Below, one piece after another: positions 3 to 26,077 of a stretch of DNA of 26,212 nucleotides; the stretch's first letter is position 1, and each line of letters begins with the position of its first letter. This stretch comes from a virus (taxonomy: Duplodnaviria; Caudoviricetes), in IMG/VR virus record IMGVR_UViG_3300020042_006736, positions 1-26,212 of that record; one strand, given 5' to 3'. The notes below the pieces were generated by a model. That model did no database searches, was not told the DNA's origin, and saw only the letters and a list, made by a program, of their open reading frames with translations. The translations under genes were made by a program, and so were the position numbers.

Positions 3-650
3 GGCGAACACTGGCGGGACATGCAGATCGACAACCAGAAAGTCGGATTTTGGGTCAGGGTCAGGGCGTGGAAAGTAGGTGACGGAGTATCATCGCGGCT
101 ATTGTGGGAAGGGTTTGTTGACACTTGGCAAACTCTTTTTGACTTACAAGAGCGGTTTTCGCTAGGCAATCGGGATGTTTTTATCGACGGACGATACGGG
201 CCTGATGAGATTGTTAGACAAGTTTACCAGCATTGCGGCAAGGATATAGGCAATCACTGGAACATCCTAATCGGCCACGACAATGACAAGGGCTATCAAT
301 TTGACGTAGGCACAAAGAACAGACCGCGCAAAGTGTGGCGCATTTACTCGAGGTATCAATACTCGCAAACCAGCGACGGCTTGCAATATCGGACGATTGG
401 ATTTTCAAACCTACGCGCCAAGGATGCGCTAGCTGCAGTCATGAACGGCGGGTCGTTTGGAATACCTCAGGATGTTTCTAAAAACTATCAGGAGCAAATG
501 ACAAGCGAGGCCAAGAAAGAAATCAGCCCTGGCCGGTGGCGATGGGAAAAAATCAAAGCGCACAAGCATAACCATTTATGGGACTGCGAAGTGATGGGTA
601 TCGTCGGCGCGTCCGTTAAGGGCATCCTTAAACTGGAAATGGCAGATTAA
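3..650 (+). CDS. Terminase large subunit, lambda GpA-like, C-terminal nuclease part (5'-truncated by window edge)
   Basis: Frame is open from base 3 (GEHWRDM...). Contains VFIDGRY and a C-terminal QMTSE...W...HNHLWDCEV motif resembling GpA-type nuclease domains. Lies upstream of the portal and head genes. Confidence 0.8.
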   Translation, partial: GEHWRDMQIDNQKVGFWVRVRAWKVGDGVSSRLLWEGFVDTWQTLFDLQERFSLGNRDVFIDGRYGPDEIVRQVYQHCGKDIGNHWNILIGHDNDKGYQFDVGTKNRPRKVWRIYSRYQYSQTSDGLQYRTIGFSNLRAKDALAAVMNGGSFGIPQDVSKNYQEQMTSEAKKEISPGRWRWEKIKAHKHNHLWDCEVMGIVGASVKGILKLEMAD

Positions 651-656
651 AAATAC

Positions 657-698
657 ATGAAAAAAAGCATTGACTATTTTCTAAATATCGTGCAAATT
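657..698 (+). promoter_or_regulatory. Putative sigma70-type promoter for the ligase insert
   Basis: A-tract, then TTGACT (670-675), 17 nt, then a weak -10 CAAATT (693-698), 9 nt before ATG 708. Confidence 0.5.
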
Positions 699-707
699 TC
701 CCTTGCG

Positions 708-1394
708 ATGAAACCGATGCTTGCCAAAACATACGAACGCTATCACGAGATTACCGGATGGATGATGTCTGAAAAACTGGACGGCGTGAGAGCAATATGG
801 GACGGCTCAAAGCTCATCAGCCGCAACGGGAATGTATTTCATGCGCCGGAATCGTTTCTTGCCACGCTCCCGGCAGGCGTAGTTCTCGATGGCGAGCTTT
901 GGATGGGACGTGGCATGTTTCAACGGACAGTCGGCGTTGTCCGTTCGCATGACGGCGATTGGACGGGCATTAAATATCTCGTGTTCGACGCTCCCGAAGT
1001 TCCCGGCGATTTTGTCACCCGCTTGGCGTTTGCCGCAACCGTGGCCGAGATCGTGCCGCATGTCGTCTGCACAGGCACTAGGCATTTGAATGAACACCTT
1101 GCTGAGCTTGTGGCGCAAGGCGCCGAAGGCGTGATGTTACGCAATCCGGCAAGCAGCTACGAACACAAGCGTTCTGCCAATCTTCTAAAGTTCAAGACAT
1201 GCAGCACCGCCGAAGCTGTCGTGATCGGCCACAAGGCAAACTCATTGCTAGTGTCGTGGAGTAAGAAAGTCTTTGCTCTTGCTGGCAGTCTTGAAACCGC
1301 AATAGGCGCTAAACTGACATTTTCCTATCAAGGTTTAACCGATGGCGGCATTCCAAGATTTCCGATATTTGTTGCTGTAAGAAATTATGAATAA
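708..1394 (+). CDS. Minimal ATP-dependent DNA ligase
   Basis: Motifs PMLA, SEKLDGVRA (KxDGxR), LDGELW, YLVFD, EGVMLR, LLKFK and terminal PRFP. Start 708 (MKPMLAK) is preferred over 657 because the intervening DNA looks like a promoter. Confidence 0.92.
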   Translation: MKPMLAKTYERYHEITGWMMSEKLDGVRAIWDGSKLISRNGNVFHAPESFLATLPAGVVLDGELWMGRGMFQRTVGVVRSHDGDWTGIKYLVFDAPEVPGDFVTRLAFAATVAEIVPHVVCTGTRHLNEHLAELVAQGAEGVMLRNPASSYEHKRSANLLKFKTCSTAEAVVIGHKANSLLVSWSKKVFALAGSLETAIGAKLTFSYQGLTDGGIPRFPIFVAVRNYE

Positions 1395-1476
1395 CGCTAG
1401 GGATCTGGCACCGCCGCCCTAGATGCCGACTTCAAGAGGGACGTTCCGGCGGTTGCCAGCATCCCATTGTTCTCAC
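1389..1476. mobile_element. attC-like recombination hairpin, site 1
   Basis: AAC(1393)-N6-GAT-CTGGCA-CCGCCG...CGGCGG-[T]-TGCCAG-[C]-ATC-N5-GTT(1469). Two extrahelical bases 6 bp apart. Overlaps the ligase stop codon (TAAC). Confidence 0.75.
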
Positions 1477-1506
1477 TCTTCCGAATCACCAAACAACACC
1501 GAACCA

Positions 1507-1752
1507 ATGGAAACACTCTACCTAATCTATCATCCGCAATACCGCACGAACGGACTCTGGAAGCCCGCCGACCACATCAGCCAAGAAATCGCCTTGCGGC
1601 ATTTCAGCGGTGGCAACGTGGCTATCTCATACAACCGACTGGATGAAATAATCTACGTCGCAGGACTCCACGGCTGGAAAGTCACCACTGAGGGTGATCC
1701 AAAATTTCCCGGTGAGAACAAAACTGCACAGGAACGCGATAGCGTTTCCTGA
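1507..1752 (+). CDS. Hypothetical protein (81 aa) in a cassette-like unit between two attC-like sites
   Basis: ATG 1507 follows an A/C-rich leader (CACCAAACAACACCGAACCA). The stop codon lies inside attC-like site 2. The longer 1423 start runs through hairpin 1 and is unlikely. Confidence 0.65.
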   Translation: METLYLIYHPQYRTNGLWKPADHISQEIALRHFSGGNVAISYNRLDEIIYVAGLHGWKVTTEGDPKFPGENKTAQERDSVS

Positions 1753-1767
1753 TGCGAACTGTTAGAA
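1712..1767. mobile_element. attC-like recombination hairpin, site 2
   Basis: AAC(1717)-N6-GCA-CAGGAA-CGC-gata-GCG-[T]-TTCCTG-[A]-TGC-N5-GTT(1761). Same geometry as site 1 and near-identical to site 3 at 25627. Confidence 0.8.
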
Positions 1768-1768
1768 A

Positions 1769-1797
1769 TTGACAACCTAACGAAACTGGTCTAACAT
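1769..1797 (+). promoter_or_regulatory. Putative head-operon promoter with CTAAC motifs
   Basis: TTGACA(1769)-17 nt-TAACAT(1792-1797), ATG at 1805. CTAAC occurs in the spacer and overlapping the -10 box. Confidence 0.7.
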
Positions 1798-2086: not shown

Positions 2087-3613
2087 ATGGCAATCCTAAA
2101 CGAGTTCGGGCAACCATTCACGCCACAGCGATACATGCACGCTGCGGAATACAACCGCACACGTGGGGTCGTTTATCCGATCAAAACGGACGATTTCGAC
2201 AAGCTCGTTAGTCCATTGGATAACAAACGCCTGCGGAGCTTGTCGTCGCGGCTATACAGCAATGTTGGCGTAATCAAGGGAGCGGTCGATCAAAAGGCGG
2301 ATTACAGCGTCGGCGATGCTTTTCTTCCGGCATACGTCGGCGAATCGGACTTTGCAGACGGCAAGTCGATTGCCACATTCATGCGTAAAGCGTGGTTTCC
2401 AAACTGCACAGAACGCGGAGGCGTATTTGATTGGCATAAACTGCTGGAACTTTCCAGTATTGCGCTAGACCGCGACGGGGATATTTTTTGGGTAAAAGTA
2501 AAATCCGCTGATGGATTCCCTAAATTGCAGATTGTCCCAGCTCATCGTGTTGGGAATTGCGGCGACTACAAGACAGTAAGCGAAGGCAAATACAAGGGCT
2601 ACAAGATCAACGATGGGGTGATTCAGTTCTACAACGGCAAACCAGCGGCGTATCGAATCCTGACTGGCGAAAACATGGATACGTTTTACGACGTTGACGC
2701 GGCCAATGTCATCCACATTTACGATCCTGATTTTTGTGACCAGTCACGCGGGGTTCCTGCATTTTCCCATGCTTTGCTAGACATCACCGCCACGCTTGCC
2801 AGCACCGAAGATGAACGCATCCGGCAGCAGATTGTATCACGCTTACACCTTACCGTTTTTAACGACACCGGAGGGCCGGACTTGGACGATCCGTCTGTCA
2901 TGTATGGCAATCAAAACGGCGCGCAAAACGGAAACGGCGTGGATGGTGGGTTTGTTTTGAACAATCCGGCTCCTGGCATCGTTTACATGCAATCCGGCAC
3001 CGGGGACAAGATCGAGCAATTGAAGCACGACACGCCAGGGGAGATTTGGGAATCGTTTCAAGACCGGATGATCCGCATGAGCTTGATCCCCGTCTGGTCG
3101 TATCAAATCTGGAAAGGATCGGGACAAGGAACGGATGCACGGGCGGAGATTGTCAAATGCCGTCGCTTTATTTCCCAGCGTCAAAGACTGCTGAAACGTG
3201 CCGCGCTAAACGCATTTTCTTGGGCATATTCATGCTTCCAAGCTGTCGGGCGTGTTCCGTTGCTGGATCACCCGTTCGCATGGGCATTTTCAACGCCTGC
3301 ACGTTTGTCTGTTGATGACGGACGGGAAAGCGGCATGGAAGTCGAAGAATGGCGCGTCGGACTACGCAACACGGCAGACATTACCGAAGCACGTTACGGC
3401 ATGACCGAGGAAGAATTTTACACCCGCCGCGCTCACAGCGTAGCAATGCGTAAAGTGATTGCTGCACAAGTAGCAGAGGAAGTATCGAAGCAATCCGGAT
3501 ACGAAGTCGAAATCGAAGATCGTGAAATGGCAATGCTTACGCCAAACGAAGTGAAGGAAAGCAAACAAGAGGAAACTCAAACCAACAACACCAATGAAAT
3601 TCCTGACGATTGA
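2087..3613 (+). CDS. Portal protein, lambda family
   Basis: 508 aa with LRSLSSRLYSN, DRDGDIF, DGVIQF..GKPAAYRI and VIHIYDP...QSRGVP motifs typical of lambda-type portals. Confidence 0.88.
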   Translation: MAILNEFGQPFTPQRYMHAAEYNRTRGVVYPIKTDDFDKLVSPLDNKRLRSLSSRLYSNVGVIKGAVDQKADYSVGDAFLPAYVGESDFADGKSIATFMRKAWFPNCTERGGVFDWHKLLELSSIALDRDGDIFWVKVKSADGFPKLQIVPAHRVGNCGDYKTVSEGKYKGYKINDGVIQFYNGKPAAYRILTGENMDTFYDVDAANVIHIYDPDFCDQSRGVPAFSHALLDITATLASTEDERIRQQIVSRLHLTVFNDTGGPDLDDPSVMYGNQNGAQNGNGVDGGFVLNNPAPGIVYMQSGTGDKIEQLKHDTPGEIWESFQDRMIRMSLIPVWSYQIWKGSGQGTDARAEIVKCRRFISQRQRLLKRAALNAFSWAYSCFQAVGRVPLLDHPFAWAFSTPARLSVDDGRESGMEVEEWRVGLRNTADITEARYGMTEEEFYTRRAHSVAMRKVIAAQVAEEVSKQSGYEVEIEDREMAMLTPNEVKESKQEETQTNNTNEIPDD

Positions 3614-5633: not shown

Positions 5634-7919
5634 ATGAAAAATGAAAAACTAAGTTTGTGCGTTATCGTGGGCAATGTGGAGAACTACATTGCCCGTTTCA
5701 TTGAATCATTCAAGCCACTGGCTGATGAGATTGTGATTGTTCGGGCTATTGGAAAACAAGAGCCTGACAGGACGGTGAAGATTGCGCAATCGCTAGGATG
5801 CGTCATTGCGGAAGAATATCAAAACTCTGATAGGGAGATTTACATTGATTTTGACCCAGCGGTTCACGATCCAAAATACTTTTCACCCGATCCTAGCGGC
5901 AAACGATACAAAACAATTGATCCTTGGCAATGGCCGCACGTTGACGACTTCGCAGCGGCACGGCAGCAAGCATTCAACGCGGCATCGCATGACTTGATTA
6001 TGTGGGCCGATACCGACGATGTTATTGATCCTGAGTCAATCAAGCGCATTCGTGAAACGATTGATTTACTACCAGAGGATTTTGACGGCATACAATTTGC
6101 TTACCATGTCCCGGAAGATCAATTGACTGTCAACCGTGAAAGGATCATCCGCAAAGGTCGCGCAGTATGGGTATCGCCAATCCATGAGTATTTGCAATTC
6201 GACAAGGAACCAAAACTGGCAACCGTCAACGGCGCGGTAATTTTGCACAGACCAGAAGGAACTAGGGAGCGCAACGACGAACGGAATCTCCGCATTCTTG
6301 AAAGCATTGAACACCCCACGGTATCGCAGAGATTCCACATGTTTCAATCGCTTCGGGCGGTTGGCCGAATCCACGAAGCGGCAACCGTCGTTTGTGAACT
6401 GCTAAAAAGCAATGACGAGAACATCGGCACGGCAGAGAAATACGAGCTTTTCATTGCCGCCGGACAAATGGCCGACAACGTGGATATTCGTTTGCAAATG
6501 AACCTACAAGCGTTGTCCGTCGATCCATCGCGCAAGGAGGCATACGGCGAGCTTTGCTTGTGCTATATCGGCCTCGGACGCGACAAGGAGGCACTAGCCA
6601 TCACAACGGCAATGATGGCGCAGGACGGCGGTTCTAGCGCGTGGAACGTCCGCAGGAAATACGCCGGATATCTTGGCCATCAACTGCACGGCATGGCATT
6701 ACGAGCTAACGGATTTCACGACCAGGCTGACGCGGTGGAAACTAACCATTTTATCCGCAGCGGGGCGAAAATCTCACTTATTCATGCCACACGGGGACGA
6801 TGCAGGCAAGCAGTTGAAGCGCGGCGTTTGTGGTTTAACAAAGCCAAGAATCCAGACGCAATTGAGCATATTTTCGGACTGGATATTGACGATCAACACG
6901 CGTCATTTTTATCAGTTCACAATCACGTTGTCACAAATGGGAAAGGAGGATGCGTAGCAGCATGGAACCTAGCGGCCATGAAATCACAAGGAGAAGTTTT
7001 AGTGCAACTTTCCGACGATTGGAATCCGCCTATGCATTGGGATGAAATCATTCTGAACGCTATCGGCGACACAAGCAAACCAGCAGTCCTAGCAATCAGC
7101 GATGGACACCGCACTGACGATTTGCTTTGCATGGCGATTCTCACACGCAAAAGATATCAGGATCAAGGTTACATGTTTTACCCTGAGTTTTTCAGCGTGT
7201 TTTCCGACAACTACTTTACGCACATGGCATATAAAGACGGCGTTGTTGTACAAGCTAGGGATATTGTTTTTGAACACTTGCATCCGGCATTTGGCAAAGC
7301 TGAAATGGACGCAACTTATGCCAGGTCAAACGACTCAAAACACTACAAAGACGGGGAAAGAATTTACCGATTGTTGCTAGAAGGCGTTTCCGATACCGGA
7401 GTATTTTGCTCTGAACTACACGAAGGACAGTTCGATTCTCCGCACCTTGCCGAATGGTTGAAAAACAACTTGGACAAAACCATTCCAATTTACGATCTCG
7501 GATGTGGGAATGGCTTTATCGTCAATGAATTAAACAAAGAAGGTTTTTGGGCTACTGGATTTGAAGGTGATCCAGTTGACAAATCACACATTAAGCACGA
7601 TCTAACAACGCCGCTCAACGTAGAACCAGCGCAAGTCGTTTGTATCGAGGTTGGCGAGCATGTGCCAGCACAACATGAATCTACTTTGATTGATAACCTC
7701 GCAAAAGCAACGGCTAAAGGGTCATTGTGCGTTATTTCGTGGGCGGTTCCCGGGCAACCTGGCAGGGGACATGTAAACTGTTTGCCTCCGTCTGAAGTTA
7801 TCGCAAAAATGACAAACGCGGGATTCAATTATGAAAAAGACTTGACGCAAGATGCTAAAAAATCCGTTAGCGATTTGCCGTGGCTTCCAAACACTTTGCT
7901 AGTTTTCCGTAAAGAATAA
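5634..7919 (+). CDS. Multidomain protein: GT2 glycosyltransferase, TPR, second GT-A domain, SAM methyltransferase
   Basis: LSLCVIV.N.E, DDFAAARQ, WADTDD and IHEY (GT2). TPR-like helices (QALSVDPSRKEAYGEL). ISLIHATRGR...QLSDD...FSDN (second GT-A). YDLGCGNG...IEVGEHV...GHVN (class I methyltransferase). Confidence 0.85.
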   Translation: MKNEKLSLCVIVGNVENYIARFIESFKPLADEIVIVRAIGKQEPDRTVKIAQSLGCVIAEEYQNSDREIYIDFDPAVHDPKYFSPDPSGKRYKTIDPWQWPHVDDFAAARQQAFNAASHDLIMWADTDDVIDPESIKRIRETIDLLPEDFDGIQFAYHVPEDQLTVNRERIIRKGRAVWVSPIHEYLQFDKEPKLATVNGAVILHRPEGTRERNDERNLRILESIEHPTVSQRFHMFQSLRAVGRIHEAATVVCELLKSNDENIGTAEKYELFIAAGQMADNVDIRLQMNLQALSVDPSRKEAYGELCLCYIGLGRDKEALAITTAMMAQDGGSSAWNVRRKYAGYLGHQLHGMALRANGFHDQADAVETNHFIRSGAKISLIHATRGRCRQAVEARRLWFNKAKNPDAIEHIFGLDIDDQHASFLSVHNHVVTNGKGGCVAAWNLAAMKSQGEVLVQLSDDWNPPMHWDEIILNAIGDTSKPAVLAISDGHRTDDLLCMAILTRKRYQDQGYMFYPEFFSVFSDNYFTHMAYKDGVVVQARDIVFEHLHPAFGKAEMDATYARSNDSKHYKDGERIYRLLLEGVSDTGVFCSELHEGQFDSPHLAEWLKNNLDKTIPIYDLGCGNGFIVNELNKEGFWATGFEGDPVDKSHIKHDLTTPLNVEPAQVVCIEVGEHVPAQHESTLIDNLAKATAKGSLCVISWAVPGQPGRGHVNCLPPSEVIAKMTNAGFNYEKDLTQDAKKSVSDLPWLPNTLLVFRKE

Positions 7920-7937
7920 CAACTACTGGAAACGGAA

Positions 7938-8114
7938 ATGAGCGCAGGAAAAGGAGACACACCGCGACCAGTTGATCACGCAAAATACAGAAACAACTAC
8001 GACCTAATCTTTAGAAAAAATGAACATGAAACTAAGCATTCTAACTCCGACGATTCCAAGCAGAAACAAGCAACTCGCGAAGCTGTCAGAAAAGATAGCA
8101 AAGCAGATCGGTGA
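7938..8114 (+). CDS. Small phage protein with GKG-x-x-PRP motif (58 aa; absent from the ORF track)
   Basis: Hand-translated as MSAGKGDTPRPVDHAKYRNNYDLIFRK... It fills the gap between the two GT genes and its tail overlaps the next gene. Confidence 0.55.
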   Translation: MSAGKGDTPRPVDHAKYRNNYDLIFRKNEHETKHSNSDDSKQKQATREAVRKDSKADR

Positions 8115-8595
8115 TTTGCCAGTGGAACATCTGGTTTTTTCTGACAACCGGACGCGAACAATCGGCGCAAAACGGCAGGCATTGCTAGACATTGCACGTG
8201 GCGATTACATTGCTTTTGTTGACGACGACGACGACATTGAGCCGGATTACGTCGCATCCATCCTCGACGCTATACGCTCGGAGGCTGATGTAATCACGTT
8301 TGAACAAAACAGCTATTACAACGGAGCGTTTTCCAAGGTGGTTTTCGGACTGAACAATCAGGATCACCCGTTCCAGCCTAACGCCATCACCCTCCGCGCA
8401 CCGTGGCACGTTTGTGTCTGGAAACGAGAACTTGTCAAATCATGCCAATTTGGGGAATGCAATTACGGAGAAGACATCATTTGGGCGCGGCAGGCACGGA
8501 AGAAAATCCGATCTGGATTCCACATTGACAAGGTGCTTTGCACGTATCGCCATGACGCAGAATTGACAGCAGCACCGGAACCTGTTAGAGTATAG
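8020..8595 (+). CDS. Glycosyltransferase family 2 (GT-A)
   Basis: LSILTPT, IGAKRQALL..ARGDYIAFVDDDD and YGEDIIW motifs. Confidence 0.9.
   Translation: MNMKLSILTPTIPSRNKQLAKLSEKIAKQIGDLPVEHLVFSDNRTRTIGAKRQALLDIARGDYIAFVDDDDDIEPDYVASILDAIRSEADVITFEQNSYYNGAFSKVVFGLNNQDHPFQPNAITLRAPWHVCVWKRELVKSCQFGECNYGEDIIWARQARKKIRSGFHIDKVLCTYRHDAELTAAPEPVRV
8563..8591 (+). promoter_or_regulatory. Putative promoter for neck and tail genes
   Basis: TTGACA(8563)-17 nt-TAGAGT(8586). CTGTTAGAGT is identical to the 4165-4174 segment. ATG at 8598. Confidence 0.7.
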
Positions 8596-15004: not shown

Positions 15005-15871
15005 ATGGCAATTTCAGCGGCACAAACGATTACGGGGAGCAACTGCCAAGGACAGGCGACATCGGCACTTGTCACTGGAATTGTTCAAATTGGCGCAAGT
15101 CAGACAGCGGTGCAGTTTCCAACGGCAGACATTGGTTATGCAATCGGAGTCGAAATCGTAGAGTCAGGGGGGTATGTCACAATTGACCTGCAAACAGGCA
15201 TAGCTACTCCGTCAGCGGCGTATGTCGCGGGAACGGCACAAGTTGAGACGGCTACGGTAGTTGCGGCAAGCGGATGCACAAGCAATGGCAACTGCTCAAT
15301 GACGTTTACAAGCACAGCAGTCACAGGATCTCCCGTTACAGTAGTTGTCGCGCTCACCACGGTTCTAACGACTGCTACGCTTGTAGCTGCCGCACTTGCC
15401 GCAGGACTAGCCGCAAACGCCGCAATCGCCGCACAATGGACAGTTACAAGCTCCGGTGCAGACATCATTGCAACACGCGTTAGTGATGCGAACGGCTACA
15501 AATACGCTAACGAAGCGACATCAGCAATGAACATAGCCATTCCAAGTGGACTTGGCTTAACCGCTGCACCAACAAGCGCAAACACGACTCCCGGCGTTGT
15601 TTCGTCCGGCGTAAACATAACAGACGGCGACGGCAAAGACTTTGAAGGTGTAACGCTTGTTTCAATGGCTCGGATGTATGGACTTGAAGTCAACGTTACA
15701 AGTGGCACCGCAGATTTGGAAAGCGGGTCAGCAGTCGTAGTGTGTCCATTGCCAGTAAAGTTTTGGAACTCATCTGGAATTACAAGCACATTTTTAACAG
15801 GCGACCTAATTCTTACAAGTTCAGCCGCCGCCACGAACCTAACCGTAACCGTCATCGGCAAATCCACATGA
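15005..15871 (+). CDS. Ala/Thr/Gly-rich virion structural protein
   Basis: Composition and beta-like pattern, own promoter, located in the tail and fibre region. Confidence 0.55.
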   Translation: MAISAAQTITGSNCQGQATSALVTGIVQIGASQTAVQFPTADIGYAIGVEIVESGGYVTIDLQTGIATPSAAYVAGTAQVETATVVAASGCTSNGNCSMTFTSTAVTGSPVTVVVALTTVLTTATLVAAALAAGLAANAAIAAQWTVTSSGADIIATRVSDANGYKYANEATSAMNIAIPSGLGLTAAPTSANTTPGVVSSGVNITDGDGKDFEGVTLVSMARMYGLEVNVTSGTADLESGSAVVVCPLPVKFWNSSGITSTFLTGDLILTSSAAATNLTVTVIGKST

Positions 15872-16212
15872 GACCCGGCAAATTCAATCTAACTCCCGTT
15901 GTTTACGGGGATACGTGGAATGGCGTTTCTGCCGTTTATTCATCCACCGGAAACACATTCGACAGTGACCTTGCAACGGTAAAAATGTCGTTTCGGGACA
16001 CGGACGGGACACTTGGACTAGCTTTGACATCATCGGCAGGAATTGTAATCAACAATGCCAACACTTACGACTTTACTGTTTCACCGATTACGCCGCTGAC
16101 ATTGGCAGTTGGCGTATGGTATTGGAGCATCGAAACGACATCGGCGGCGGGAGTTATCAAAACTTATCTTGCCGGAACATTGGAAGTCCTAGACGACCCG
16201 ACACGCGCATAA
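15868..16212 (+). CDS. Fibre-attachment or BppU-N-like small virion protein
   Basis: YGDTW...GVWYWSIE.....G.IKTYLAG.LEV pattern is common before fibre genes. Start 15868 chosen for its ATGA overlap. Confidence 0.55.
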   Translation: MRPGKFNLTPVVYGDTWNGVSAVYSSTGNTFDSDLATVKMSFRDTDGTLGLALTSSAGIVINNANTYDFTVSPITPLTLAVGVWYWSIETTSAAGVIKTYLAGTLEVLDDPTRA

Positions 16213-22055: not shown

Positions 22056-22179
22056 GCATTAGTAATGCCAACTCGCAGATACCGAGATGAAACAATACAA
22101 AACAAATACGCCGTCGTGCGATTGCTTGCCACTTTTTGAGTGGGTATCTCTTGCAATCCATGACGGCGAACCTGTTTTT
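22056..22179 (+). ncRNA. Structured cis-regulatory leader, copy A (predicted loop-bulge pseudoknot)
   Basis: Two small hairpins, an A-rich linker, and a long hairpin at 22109-22168. Loop AGATAC (22077) is complementary to bulge GTATCT (22144). Confidence 0.6.
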
Positions 22180-22182
22180 ATT

Positions 22183-22911
22183 ATGCAAAACGATGAGTTA
22201 AGCAGTAAGGAAAAAAACAAATTGCACGCTAAAGCATATCAGCAATCAGTTGAATATAAAGAGTATGCGAAGAACTACAGAAACAAACCAGAATCTATAT
22301 TAGCAAGAAAAGCATACCGACTAACAGAAAAAGCAAAAGCAGCAGAAAAAGCGCGTAGAAATCTGGATAGTGTAAAAAATTACATTAGATTAAACAACCG
22401 TAAGCCAGAAACAATAAAGGCGAAAAAAGAATACGCGCAATCAGCAGAGGGAAAGGAATACTTTAAGAATTATCACAAAAGGCCAGAAGTTGTTGCAAAA
22501 AGGCAATCGCAAGAACGTAAAGATTGTCTAAAAAAATGGCAGCAGTCAGAAAAAGGCAGATTAATGCGCAAGGTGTGGCTGGAATCTTACAAGAAAACAA
22601 AAAAGTATAGAGCCAGTGTATCAGCTCAAGCGTCAAGACGACGGGCTATAAAAAAGCGCGCGCCACTTGCAGACGCAAAAGTGATTGCTGCTTGGTTTAA
22701 AAAATGGAAAACGCTTGATGTTGTTTTTTGTCACTGGTGTCATGGTCAATTCAAAGTAAAGGAATGCGAGGCGGATCATGTAATGCCTATTTCAAAGGGG
22801 GGAGCACATTCAATTGACAATCTTGTGATTTCTTGCGTGTCATGTAATCGCAGAAAAGCAGCAAAAACGCCAAGCGAATGGGTTGCTGAATTGCGCTTGC
22901 AACCCATATAG
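22183..22911 (+). CDS. HNH endonuclease with long basic helical N-terminus
   Basis: CHWC...DHVMPISKGGAHSIDNLVISCVSCNRRK motif. Start 22183 preferred because 22087-22182 is a structured leader. Confidence 0.9.
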   Translation: MQNDELSSKEKNKLHAKAYQQSVEYKEYAKNYRNKPESILARKAYRLTEKAKAAEKARRNLDSVKNYIRLNNRKPETIKAKKEYAQSAEGKEYFKNYHKRPEVVAKRQSQERKDCLKKWQQSEKGRLMRKVWLESYKKTKKYRASVSAQASRRRAIKKRAPLADAKVIAAWFKKWKTLDVVFCHWCHGQFKVKECEADHVMPISKGGAHSIDNLVISCVSCNRRKAAKTPSEWVAELRLQPI

Positions 22912-22931
22912 ACATTAGCATTTTGAAAATA

Positions 22932-22974
22932 CTTGAAAAAAGTTCTTGCGTTTTTTCATCTTTGGGGCTACTTT
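22932..22974 (+). promoter_or_regulatory. Putative early promoter
   Basis: A-tract UP-like element, TTGCGT(22946)-17 nt-TACTTT(22969), then an A/C-rich leader to ATG 22998. Confidence 0.55.
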
Positions 22975-24502: not shown

Positions 24503-24913
24503 ATGAGCGAACAAGAATTTACTGGCAAGGTAAGCCAGATGAAAAAGGACAACAAGTTCCTAGCAAGTGAAGACTTTATCGGACTTGGCGAAATCGAATT
24601 AATTATCAGCGGAATTTACGCGCATGACAACGAAGTAATGCAGGACGGCAAAAAGAAATCATTTTTCAGCGTTGGATTTAACGACAAGCCAAAGCGGATG
24701 GTGCTTAACGCCACCAACCGCAAGACGCTGGCTATGGCATACGGCGCAGATACTAAGAACTGGATCGGCAAGGCTGTAATCTTATACGCCAAGGACGGAA
24801 TCAGGAATCCAGCAGGCGGCGACACGGTTTATGGATTGCGGCTAAAAGTTAAGCAGACCGCAAAAAGCACAATCAAGCCATTCGCAACAGAACAGGAAGG
24901 AGCAGAGCAATGA
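24503..24913 (+). CDS. Conserved phage protein, possible ssDNA-binding or annealing partner of YqaJ
   Basis: KRMVLNATNRKTL...YG.....WIGK.V.LY pattern, translationally coupled to the exonuclease. Confidence 0.5.
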   Translation: MSEQEFTGKVSQMKKDNKFLASEDFIGLGEIELIISGIYAHDNEVMQDGKKKSFFSVGFNDKPKRMVLNATNRKTLAMAYGADTKNWIGKAVILYAKDGIRNPAGGDTVYGLRLKVKQTAKSTIKPFATEQEGAEQ

Positions 24914-25662
24914 TTATTATCGACACACCGCAAGGCTCAATCGACTGGATCACGGCGAGGCTATGGCGTTTGACTGGATCAGCGTTGAAAGCGAATATCA
25001 CGGCGACAGGCGCGTTGTCGAAGTCACAAGCGGCCATTGCTGCAATCGACAAGATCATCGCCGGACTCGACGCGGCAAACGAGATTCGCACGAATCCCGA
25101 CGCGATTGCCGGACTTGACGACTACGAGGTTCAAGAATGGCTTAGTCATTACACAGGCGAGAAATTCAGCGGCAACAAACACACGCGCCGCGGAAATGAT
25201 CTGGAGCCGGATGCGCTAGCAGCATTGCAAGAAAAGATCGGGATGCAAATCGACCCAGTGGGCATGTGCATCATGGGTGACGATCCAAACGGGGTGGTTT
25301 CCTGCTCGCCAGATGGATTGATTTACAATGACGGGATACTAACGGCAGGCGCGGAAGTTAAATGCCCGACGTTGGCAACGTATTACGGCTATCTGGCCGA
25401 CGGTGGACTGCCGGATGAATACAAGCTGCAAGTTCATGCTTCAATGGTAATCTGCGAGGTTGACGAATGGCATTTTGCCGCGTATTTTCACAGAAAGCCG
25501 CTATTTCACCATCTGGTGAAAATGGATGGTTTTACTGAAAAGCTTGGCGACTCATTGCAAGACTTCCGCCAAATGTATGAAGAACGGTTTTGGAAGATTT
25601 CCAGCGTTATGAAGGAACTTAAACAGAACAGCCAAGCACAGGAAGGCGAAAGCCTTTCCTGA
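24910..25662 (+). CDS. YqaJ / lambda-exonuclease-family recombination nuclease
   Basis: QGSIDW..AR...LTGS, RGNDLEP, SCSPDGL, EVKCP and Y.LQV motifs. Confidence 0.9.
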   Translation: MIIIDTPQGSIDWITARLWRLTGSALKANITATGALSKSQAAIAAIDKIIAGLDAANEIRTNPDAIAGLDDYEVQEWLSHYTGEKFSGNKHTRRGNDLEPDALAALQEKIGMQIDPVGMCIMGDDPNGVVSCSPDGLIYNDGILTAGAEVKCPTLATYYGYLADGGLPDEYKLQVHASMVICEVDEWHFAAYFHRKPLFHHLVKMDGFTEKLGDSLQDFRQMYEERFWKISSVMKELKQNSQAQEGESLS

Positions 25663-25677
25663 TGCGACCTGTTCAAA
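25623..25677. mobile_element. attC-like recombination hairpin, site 3 (solitary)
   Basis: AAC(25627)-N6-GCA-CAGGAA-GGC-gaaa-GCC-[T]-TTCCTG-[A]-TGC-N5-GTT(25671). Compensatory change relative to site 2. Confidence 0.78.
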
Positions 25678-25681
25678 CTTT

Positions 25682-26077
25682 ATGACAATCATTCTTCCAG
25701 TCAAACTAACAAACGGCAACACCGGACGCGGAAACGCGTGGTATATGTCGGCGGCATTTCGAGACAAAGTAGAAAAGAAACTGCGCAAACTAGGACTAGC
25801 AAGATCACCGTTTACAATGCCGGTAACGGTTACGGTAACGCGCATTTTAGGCAAGGGCGACCGGCTATGGGATTCGTCTTCAATCTTGCGCGGTAATTAC
25901 AAAGAATTGGAGGATAGTTTAGTTGCAATCGGCTGGTTTGTTGACGATTCTACAAAGCACATTGCATGGACTAACGGACGGCAAGACGACACCCGGCGCG
26001 ACAAAGGGCCATCCGTGGAACTTGAGATTTTACCTTATTTTGCAGACGATAGCAAACTTGACAATCAACCGGAATGA
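25682..26077 (+). CDS. RusA-like Holliday junction resolvase
   Basis: R.WD.....K.LED.LV..G...DDS acidic-residue pattern. Confidence 0.65.
   Translation: MTIILPVKLTNGNTGRGNAWYMSAAFRDKVEKKLRKLGLARSPFTMPVTVTVTRILGKGDRLWDSSSILRGNYKELEDSLVAIGWFVDDSTKHIAWTNGRQDDTRRDKGPSVELEILPYFADDSKLDNQPE

Follow-up and report, generated by a model that had tools for sequence, protein, structure and literature searches.

Nucleotides 1395–1718 of the phage contig studied here are probably an integron-type cassette lying backwards at a fixed hairpin, which we call a dock. Hairpin recombination would have inserted it there, with the enzyme supplied in trans by a phage-borne clade of the IntI integrase family. The unit itself is a real cassette of the integron type, inverted and placed at a dock, and it is likely to be mobile; two features of integrons that it lacks are their gene orientation and their outer extrahelical G. 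The window, by which we mean the whole 26,212-nt stretch analysed, is the entire phage contig and is about 33% complete (Table 1). The best cultured match of its portal is Verrucomicrobia phage P8625 (27.5%; two records of one phage among 50,697). Since this is the sole cultured portal match, a verrucomicrobium is the likely host as judged from sequence.

Table 1. Features of the window discussed in the text
Feature	Position	Strand	Remarks
Terminase large subunit, C-terminal part	21..650	+	PF20454; left neighbour of the variable block
Variable block (ligase, cassette, site 2)	651..1756	+	Between terminase stop and head-gene promoter
ATP-dependent DNA ligase gene	708..1394, open frame from 657	+	Accessory gene
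Site 1, attC-type hairpin heading the cassette	1393..1471	+	Inner extra base T, outer C
Putative mobile cassette, 324 bp	1395..1718	+	AA/C to AA/C; hairpin 1 and stopless gene body
Cargo gene, 81 aa	1507..1752	+	Last 11 codons and stop supplied by site 2
Site 2, short attC-type dock hairpin	1717..1763	+	Ends the slot, gives a stop codon, heads no cassette
Sigma-70-like promoter match	1769..1797	+	Adjoins site 2; kept in empty alleles; consensus match only
Portal protein	2087..3613	+	PF05136; core gene at right, used for finding relatives
YqaJ-like exonuclease gene	24910..25662	+	PF09588; anchors the site 3 slot on its left
Site 3, second dock hairpin, empty state	25627..25673	+	Exact attC geometry; YqaJ frame stops inside
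RusA-like gene	25682..26077	+	phrog_34, E 2.5e-5; immediately after site 3

Geometry and orientation of the hairpin sites

Both strands of the window were scanned for the layout AAC-N6-3 bp-6 bp-stem-loop-T-6 bp-extra base-3 bp-N5-GTT. Exactly three sites have it without a mismatch, all of them on the plus strand. The first-pass annotation of this DNA had described two of these, sites 1 and 2, and both lie where it placed them and with the layout that it gave; the third, sharing 79% identity with site 2 across 56 nt, was overlooked. A looser scan of the window found no fourth. The AAC of site 1 overlaps the stop codon of the ligase gene. Chance hairpins are ruled out as an explanation by dinucleotide shuffles of the window (n = 150), in which no site appeared at one mismatch or fewer and a mean of 0.09 at two or fewer. 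As single-stranded DNA the three sites are predicted to fold, whichever strand is taken, and their z-scores relative to shuffles range from -3.1 to -5.8. A known RNA family or a terminator was also considered and rejected: an Rfam search of the sites returned zero matches at E ≤ 1, and there is no terminator-like site within 560–2150. It should be noted that the scanner missed the sites of M16-3, TJE1 and P12002L, and is therefore specific rather than sensitive.

The orientation of the sites can be read from their extra bases, which on the recombining (bottom) strand of attC lie opposite AAC (Nivina 2016, PMC5027507). In the window, the arm across from AAC bears two extrahelical bases on the plus strand, and the plus strand of site 1 has the layout of a recombining strand. 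For a control we used the aadA2/dfrA12 region of a class 1 integron, where 3/3 attC sites fall on the strand opposite the genes, with G and T as extra bases. The scanner places the window sites on the coding strand and the control sites opposite their genes, which confirms the inversion relative to the gene that had been proposed. Promoter-facing cassettes are described as unseen in bacterial integrons in the part of Nivina 2016 (PMC5027507) covered.

Twenty-six distinct sites, which stem from 19 scanned sequences and fall into few families, give a wider view of these bases. The inner extra base is T in 26/26, a base that the scanner did not require. The outer one is C in 13, A in 11, T in 2 and G in none, as against G in 3/3 of the class 1 controls. 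At 21/26 sites AAC lies in the register of the longest open frame that comes in from upstream, and at 2/26, site 1 among them, it is part of a TAA stop.

The mobile unit, its docks and the side of the crossover

The unit is bounded by AA/C at both ends (the slash marks the crossover). The AAC-to-AAC distance of 324 bp and the 9-bp inner ends, which are exact reverse complements (1468–1476 and 1712–1720), agree with the first description. The gene is bracketed by the two hairpins as claimed, but its stop sits inside site 2 and so outside the 324-bp unit; an Asn codon of the gene is the AAC of site 2. The start assigned earlier, at 1423, gives way to the methionine at 1507, where most homologues begin, three of them having N-terminal extensions. 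The product finds no match in Pfam, PHROGs, NCBIfam or the Atlas, and its 35 relatives at E ≤ 0.001 include none with a name.

The gene has 13 homologous clusters, and in 8/13 the conserved body ends at Asn and an unrelated tail follows. Identical bodies carry three different tails from Asn onward in P0004, P0024 and P0025, and two tails in P0009 and P0026, one of these two being the peptide of the hairpin two cassettes onward in L041. The latter locus is a five-site array, where the cargo homologue forms a 288-bp unit. The cargo gene is absent from the viral collection searched; in metagenomes it occurs at two loci, of which one belongs to an array and the other is truncated at its start and lacks a following site.

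The alleles at the second slot, behind the YqaJ gene, bear most directly on how a unit is inserted. In five genomes the YqaJ gene enters AAC in frame. A dock-type hairpin lies directly behind this AAC in the window and in L033, which is the empty state. Inserted at the same AA/C are 256 bp in L038, 442 bp in L039 and, in L037, two units of 562 and 585 bp, whose ends are complementary over 10 and 8 bp; a contig from run X3 has 285 different letters at the slot. Because the first hairpin varies while the end of the gene and the final hairpin stay unchanged, the unit is a hairpin together with the gene behind it. From these alleles we infer that the crossover would fall at the left AA/C and not at the right GTT; the complementary inner ends suit either side. 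In L037, positions 1386–1971 of the reverse strand hold a cassette of two genes; it has a promoter-like leader of its own and includes a small helix-turn-helix-like gene.

Complementary unit ends recur across loci. In 17/20 units the 4 nt after GTT pair 4/4 with the flank of the next AAC, while only 1/20 do so with their own flank; shuffled end pairings averaged 1.35 and reached at most 8 in 20,000. The right ends of L038 and L039 were chosen with complementarity in view, and leaving both out gives 16/18, where part of the remaining sites were chosen by fold or by a looser scan rather than the strict one.

Sites 2 and 3 are members of one 44–47-nt family that ends slots in L041 as well as in this group of phages. 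The first-pass annotation put sites 1 and 2 on one level, but site 2 behaves like a fixed dock. Docks head no cassette, since 0/11 have a partner end in the 539–2000 nt downstream; most carry an in-frame stop for the preceding gene. The record G001 has two dock slots with a cassette before the dock in each. We infer that docks would serve as resident insertion points. The second of its slots lies on the reverse strand of L057 (G001), around 15839–16167, where a replication-type gene is followed by one cassette with 7-bp complementary ends and then by a dock.

For the terminase slot, where site 2 lies, thirty portal loci were compared, ten of them with 98–100% portal identity. In 9/10 of these close relatives the block 651–1756 is missing, and the terminase stop is directly joined to the sequence at 1757; the joint of 648 to 1757 was found in contigs of 3/4 runs. 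Since close relatives and runs join the terminase straight to 1757, the block is accessory as a whole. L003 (portal 98–100%) has site 2 alone, without the ligase, and 11 nt in front of it match the end of the ligase gene, displaced by 3 nt from where the junction was predicted. L015, which is more distant, has the ligase and another gene at the slot, hairpin-free, and no site was found at the terminase slot in any of the more distant portal loci. The exact allele of ligase plus site 2 is absent among the 30 portal loci and 22 ligase loci (closest three inspected). Empty and alternative alleles had been predicted: they exist at the sister slot of site 3 and for the cargo gene, but the exact empty junction was not found at this slot. 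The ligase was tried as a cassette in its own right and rejected, its left side having neither hairpin nor partner end and the gene being hairpin-free in L015, L066 and L067. The arrival of the ligase and site 2 at the terminase slot, for which the main explanation does not account, counts against it. The system is patchy in its occurrence, since neither of two distant relatives, G004 (93% complete, portal 49%) and P8625, shows a site.

Exchange at AA/C is not the sole process at work, because cargo and hairpins occur in changed pairings, one cargo with several hairpins and one hairpin with several cargoes. Such GTT-side re-pairing goes beyond what bottom-strand recombination alone explains. 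Searches for the joint of a 324-bp circle found none in 4 runs, the cargo gene being covered by none of these runs. In run X5, the summed contig depth across window positions 1415–1475 is about 295 over site 1 vs. 17 over the phage flanks, and loose ends of the site occur at 1393 and at 1472–1473. This depth and these ends indicate that the site 1 hairpin is present in many further contexts. As the loose ends fall at both places, they leave GTT vs. AA/C undecided.

Candidate integrase, mechanism and alternatives

In this 33%-complete contig there are two adjacent sites and no PF00589 match, in line with the earlier remark that no integrase is encoded in the window. A recombinase elsewhere had been suggested instead; a candidate was found in other phages, but none in the contig or in the related records searched. 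A pattern search with site 1 led to two phage loci, L050 and L051. The L050 array has two copies of site 1. In L051 (record G002, which has terminase and major head protein matches) an array ends in a cassette headed by a copy with 96% identity over 80 nt, and this copy lies 0.9 kb upstream of an integron-type integrase that is intact. This cassette ends at AA/C, 51 nt before the intact tyrosine recombinase. The top family of the integrase (L051:3005–3970) is TIGR02249 of 13, at 194 bits, below the curated cut-off of 265. Its best PDB match is VchIntIA (2a3v, E 1.4e-32), in an alignment that spans the IntI-specific insertion, and its catalytic residues align with those of IntI1. Homologues form 289 clusters at E ≤ 1e-40, one member being labelled as an Akkermansiaceae genome bin. 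A second tyrosine integrase of G002 (L052 2675–3535, minus strand), which lacks most of the IntI insertion, is oriented towards the IntI-like gene and is probably a lysogeny integrase.

Integrases of the L051 type occur in six viral loci, five of them distinct. In 5/5 distinct loci an attI-like stretch is conserved, non-folding and with its AAC 46–51 nt before the start codon; the last cassette ends at the AA/C of this stretch. The integrase, the attI-like site and the attC strands have the usual divergent layout, and the cargo genes alone are turned. Two records with an identical integrase differ in their arrays. The cargo of L039, a close relative of the window phage, recurs in integrase-bearing L062 (79% over 337 nt). 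The cargo of the arrays in L059, L060, L062, L063 and L050 includes many DNA methyltransferases, along with a PAPS-reductase-like and a Mom-like protein. Some results go against the main explanation. No tyrosine recombinase was found in 4 related records (PF00589) or in 10 (integrase query), mostly fragments; G002 and the window have no protein in common at E 1e-4; and a search of 5 records that bear the integrase did not turn up the dock family. The outer extra base that is never G, the TIGR02249 score below its cut-off, the missing allele of ligase plus site 2 and the changed pairings of hairpins and cargo weigh on the same side. The dock was also considered as a copy of attI. Its first 18 nt match the attI-like sites at 6.5/15 positions vs. 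4.2 for cassette hairpins, which is only a weak hint because the docks form one family.

In the proposed mechanism, the coding strand would fold out during replication or annealing, and an IntI-family integrase supplied in trans would cut the AAC after its second A. The AA/C of the dock would then be joined by a circle made up of the hairpin and its gene. The upstream gene would hold its frame and receive a new tail and stop codon from the hairpin that comes in, while phage transcription from upstream would express the cargo.

The cassette and its crossover could be just as described and the enzyme a different one, namely the integrase of a host chromosomal integron or a recombinase encoded in the two thirds of the phage genome that the contig does not reach. 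We regard this as unlikely, though it deserves to be taken seriously. Integrons exist in Verrucomicrobia (Cury 2016, PMC4889954), IntI1 recombines phage attC sites (Qi 2023, PMC9892861), the contig is only 33% complete, and the clade member in an Akkermansiaceae bin means that the clade may be partly chromosomal or prophage. Yet the phage-borne integrase is the only one found adjoining this hairpin family. Host attC sites were also sought by running the dock pattern against genomes, a lead that was rejected: the 7 hits were all Gammaproteobacteria/Pseudomonadota records, and the one scanned had no site, Verrucomicrobia chromosomes lying outside the scan.

Two further readings change the nature of the exchange itself. 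The hairpins might be common repeats or translation linkers, with units swapped by homologous or microhomology recombination (e.g., by YqaJ/RecE) and no integrase involved. The window phage does encode a YqaJ exonuclease, the block 651–1756 has no attC-like left border and resembles an ordinary slot for accessory genes, and hairpins and cargo do re-pair. But adjacent hairpins are unrelated in sequence and have AAC alone in common at the junction, and neither the complementary unit ends (17/20) with the fixed spacing of extra bases nor the attI-like site and IntI adjoining the arrays is predicted by such swapping, which makes it very improbable. The least probable reading, by a small measure, is that of normal orientation, in which a gene and the hairpin downstream of it would form the unit, the crossover would lie at the right-hand GTT and the bulges would be mirror images. 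Complementary inner ends are compatible with either side, the GTT of site 2 coincides with sequence in the empty terminase allele, and the re-pairing of hairpins with cargo suggests some GTT-side exchange. The YqaJ slot, however, has a constant last hairpin and a variable first one, the opposite of what this predicts, and the integrase-adjoining arrays end at a hairpin-less AA/C.

Relation to known integrons and to the phage setting

In the portions of the integron literature covered (PMC5027507, PMC4889954), attC sites and cassettes are like the present ones in having AAC and GTT boxes, 6- and 5-nt spacers, 3- and 6-bp stems, two extra bases on the arm across from AAC (the inner one T), complementary ends and an A/C crossover. 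Unlike in integron cassettes, the window gene is on the recombining strand, behind its hairpin, and lacks a stop of its own, its frame running on into the hairpin that follows. A further difference, from class 1 attC, is the outer extra base, which is C, A or T instead of G. In the 'inverted'-integrase integrons of Treponema and others, as given in the part of Cury 2016 covered, integrase and cassette genes are likewise on one strand; there it is the integrase that is turned relative to attC, whereas here the cargo genes alone are turned.

Clusters of attC sites in phages are already known. Qi 2023 (PMC9892861) describes 17 phage CALINs, and IntI1 recombined 5/6 phage attC sites. These CALINs resemble the window in having at least two attC-type sites without a nearby integrase, and methyltransferase cargo is common in them. 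In TJE1, the sole published case that we oriented, the bottom strand is opposite the genes, the normal orientation and unlike the window; the attC sites of P12002L are divergent according to Qi 2023 (PMC9892861). The complete phage integrons of that study are captured host or class 1 integrons, unlike those here, and its portions covered mention no docks, frame lock or phage-resident integrase clade. SALINs, in the part of the preprint covered (bioRxiv 10.1101/2022.09.11.507474), are alike in being single attC sites remote from an integrase, and the integrase-driven insertion at attG outside integrons that it describes could seed new slots. Docks differ from SALINs in being one sequence family at gene ends, in having no cargo of their own (0/11 with a partner end) and in being reused for insertion. 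Inverted phage cassettes, docks and this integrase clade were found nowhere in the literature covered, which includes Ghaly 2021 (PMC8618304) and leaves subscription journals mostly outside; Supplementary File S1 of Qi 2023 could show inverted cases. Within this scope the inversion, the docks and the integrase clade are apparently new.

Integrons are usually viewed as bacterial devices, and phage attC clusters as captured fragments. The cassette design seen here fits a phage operon, in that the genes follow phage transcription and the junctions preserve the reading frame, and fixed docks take up cassettes not only in the replication region but also between the terminase gene and the head genes. 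Should the phage-borne integrase recombine these sites, they would provide a site-specific path to phage mosaicism, and the methyltransferase and DNA-modification cargo would bear on escaping host restriction. A broader proposal, which we hold tentatively and think may well be wrong, is that Verrucomicrobia phages share an integron network. Temperate phages would carry the dedicated IntI clade and attI, integrase-free phages would carry purpose-built docks replacing attI, and backwards, frame-locked cassettes would pass between unrelated co-infecting phages. Were this true, the GTT-side re-pairing of hairpins with cargo would show how new cassettes arise. The integrase, attI, docks and non-G extra bases together make a compact test set for integrase specificity and cassette creation.

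Some other features of the window concern its gene expression and accessory content. A promoter-like motif, in which a CTAAC-type box comes after TTGACA, is repeated at 1769, 4147 and 9959, in and before the late genes, and is probably a phage regulatory site. Two AT-rich stretches, 642–681 and 22918–22957, are 73% identical and precede the ligase gene and the early region, respectively; they are possible early promoters. Right behind the head genes (5634–8595) are two glycosyltransferase genes, one of them fused with TPR and methyltransferase domains. An HNH endonuclease gene at 22087–22911 lies in low-GC surroundings, and a related frame is found behind the dock region in L036.
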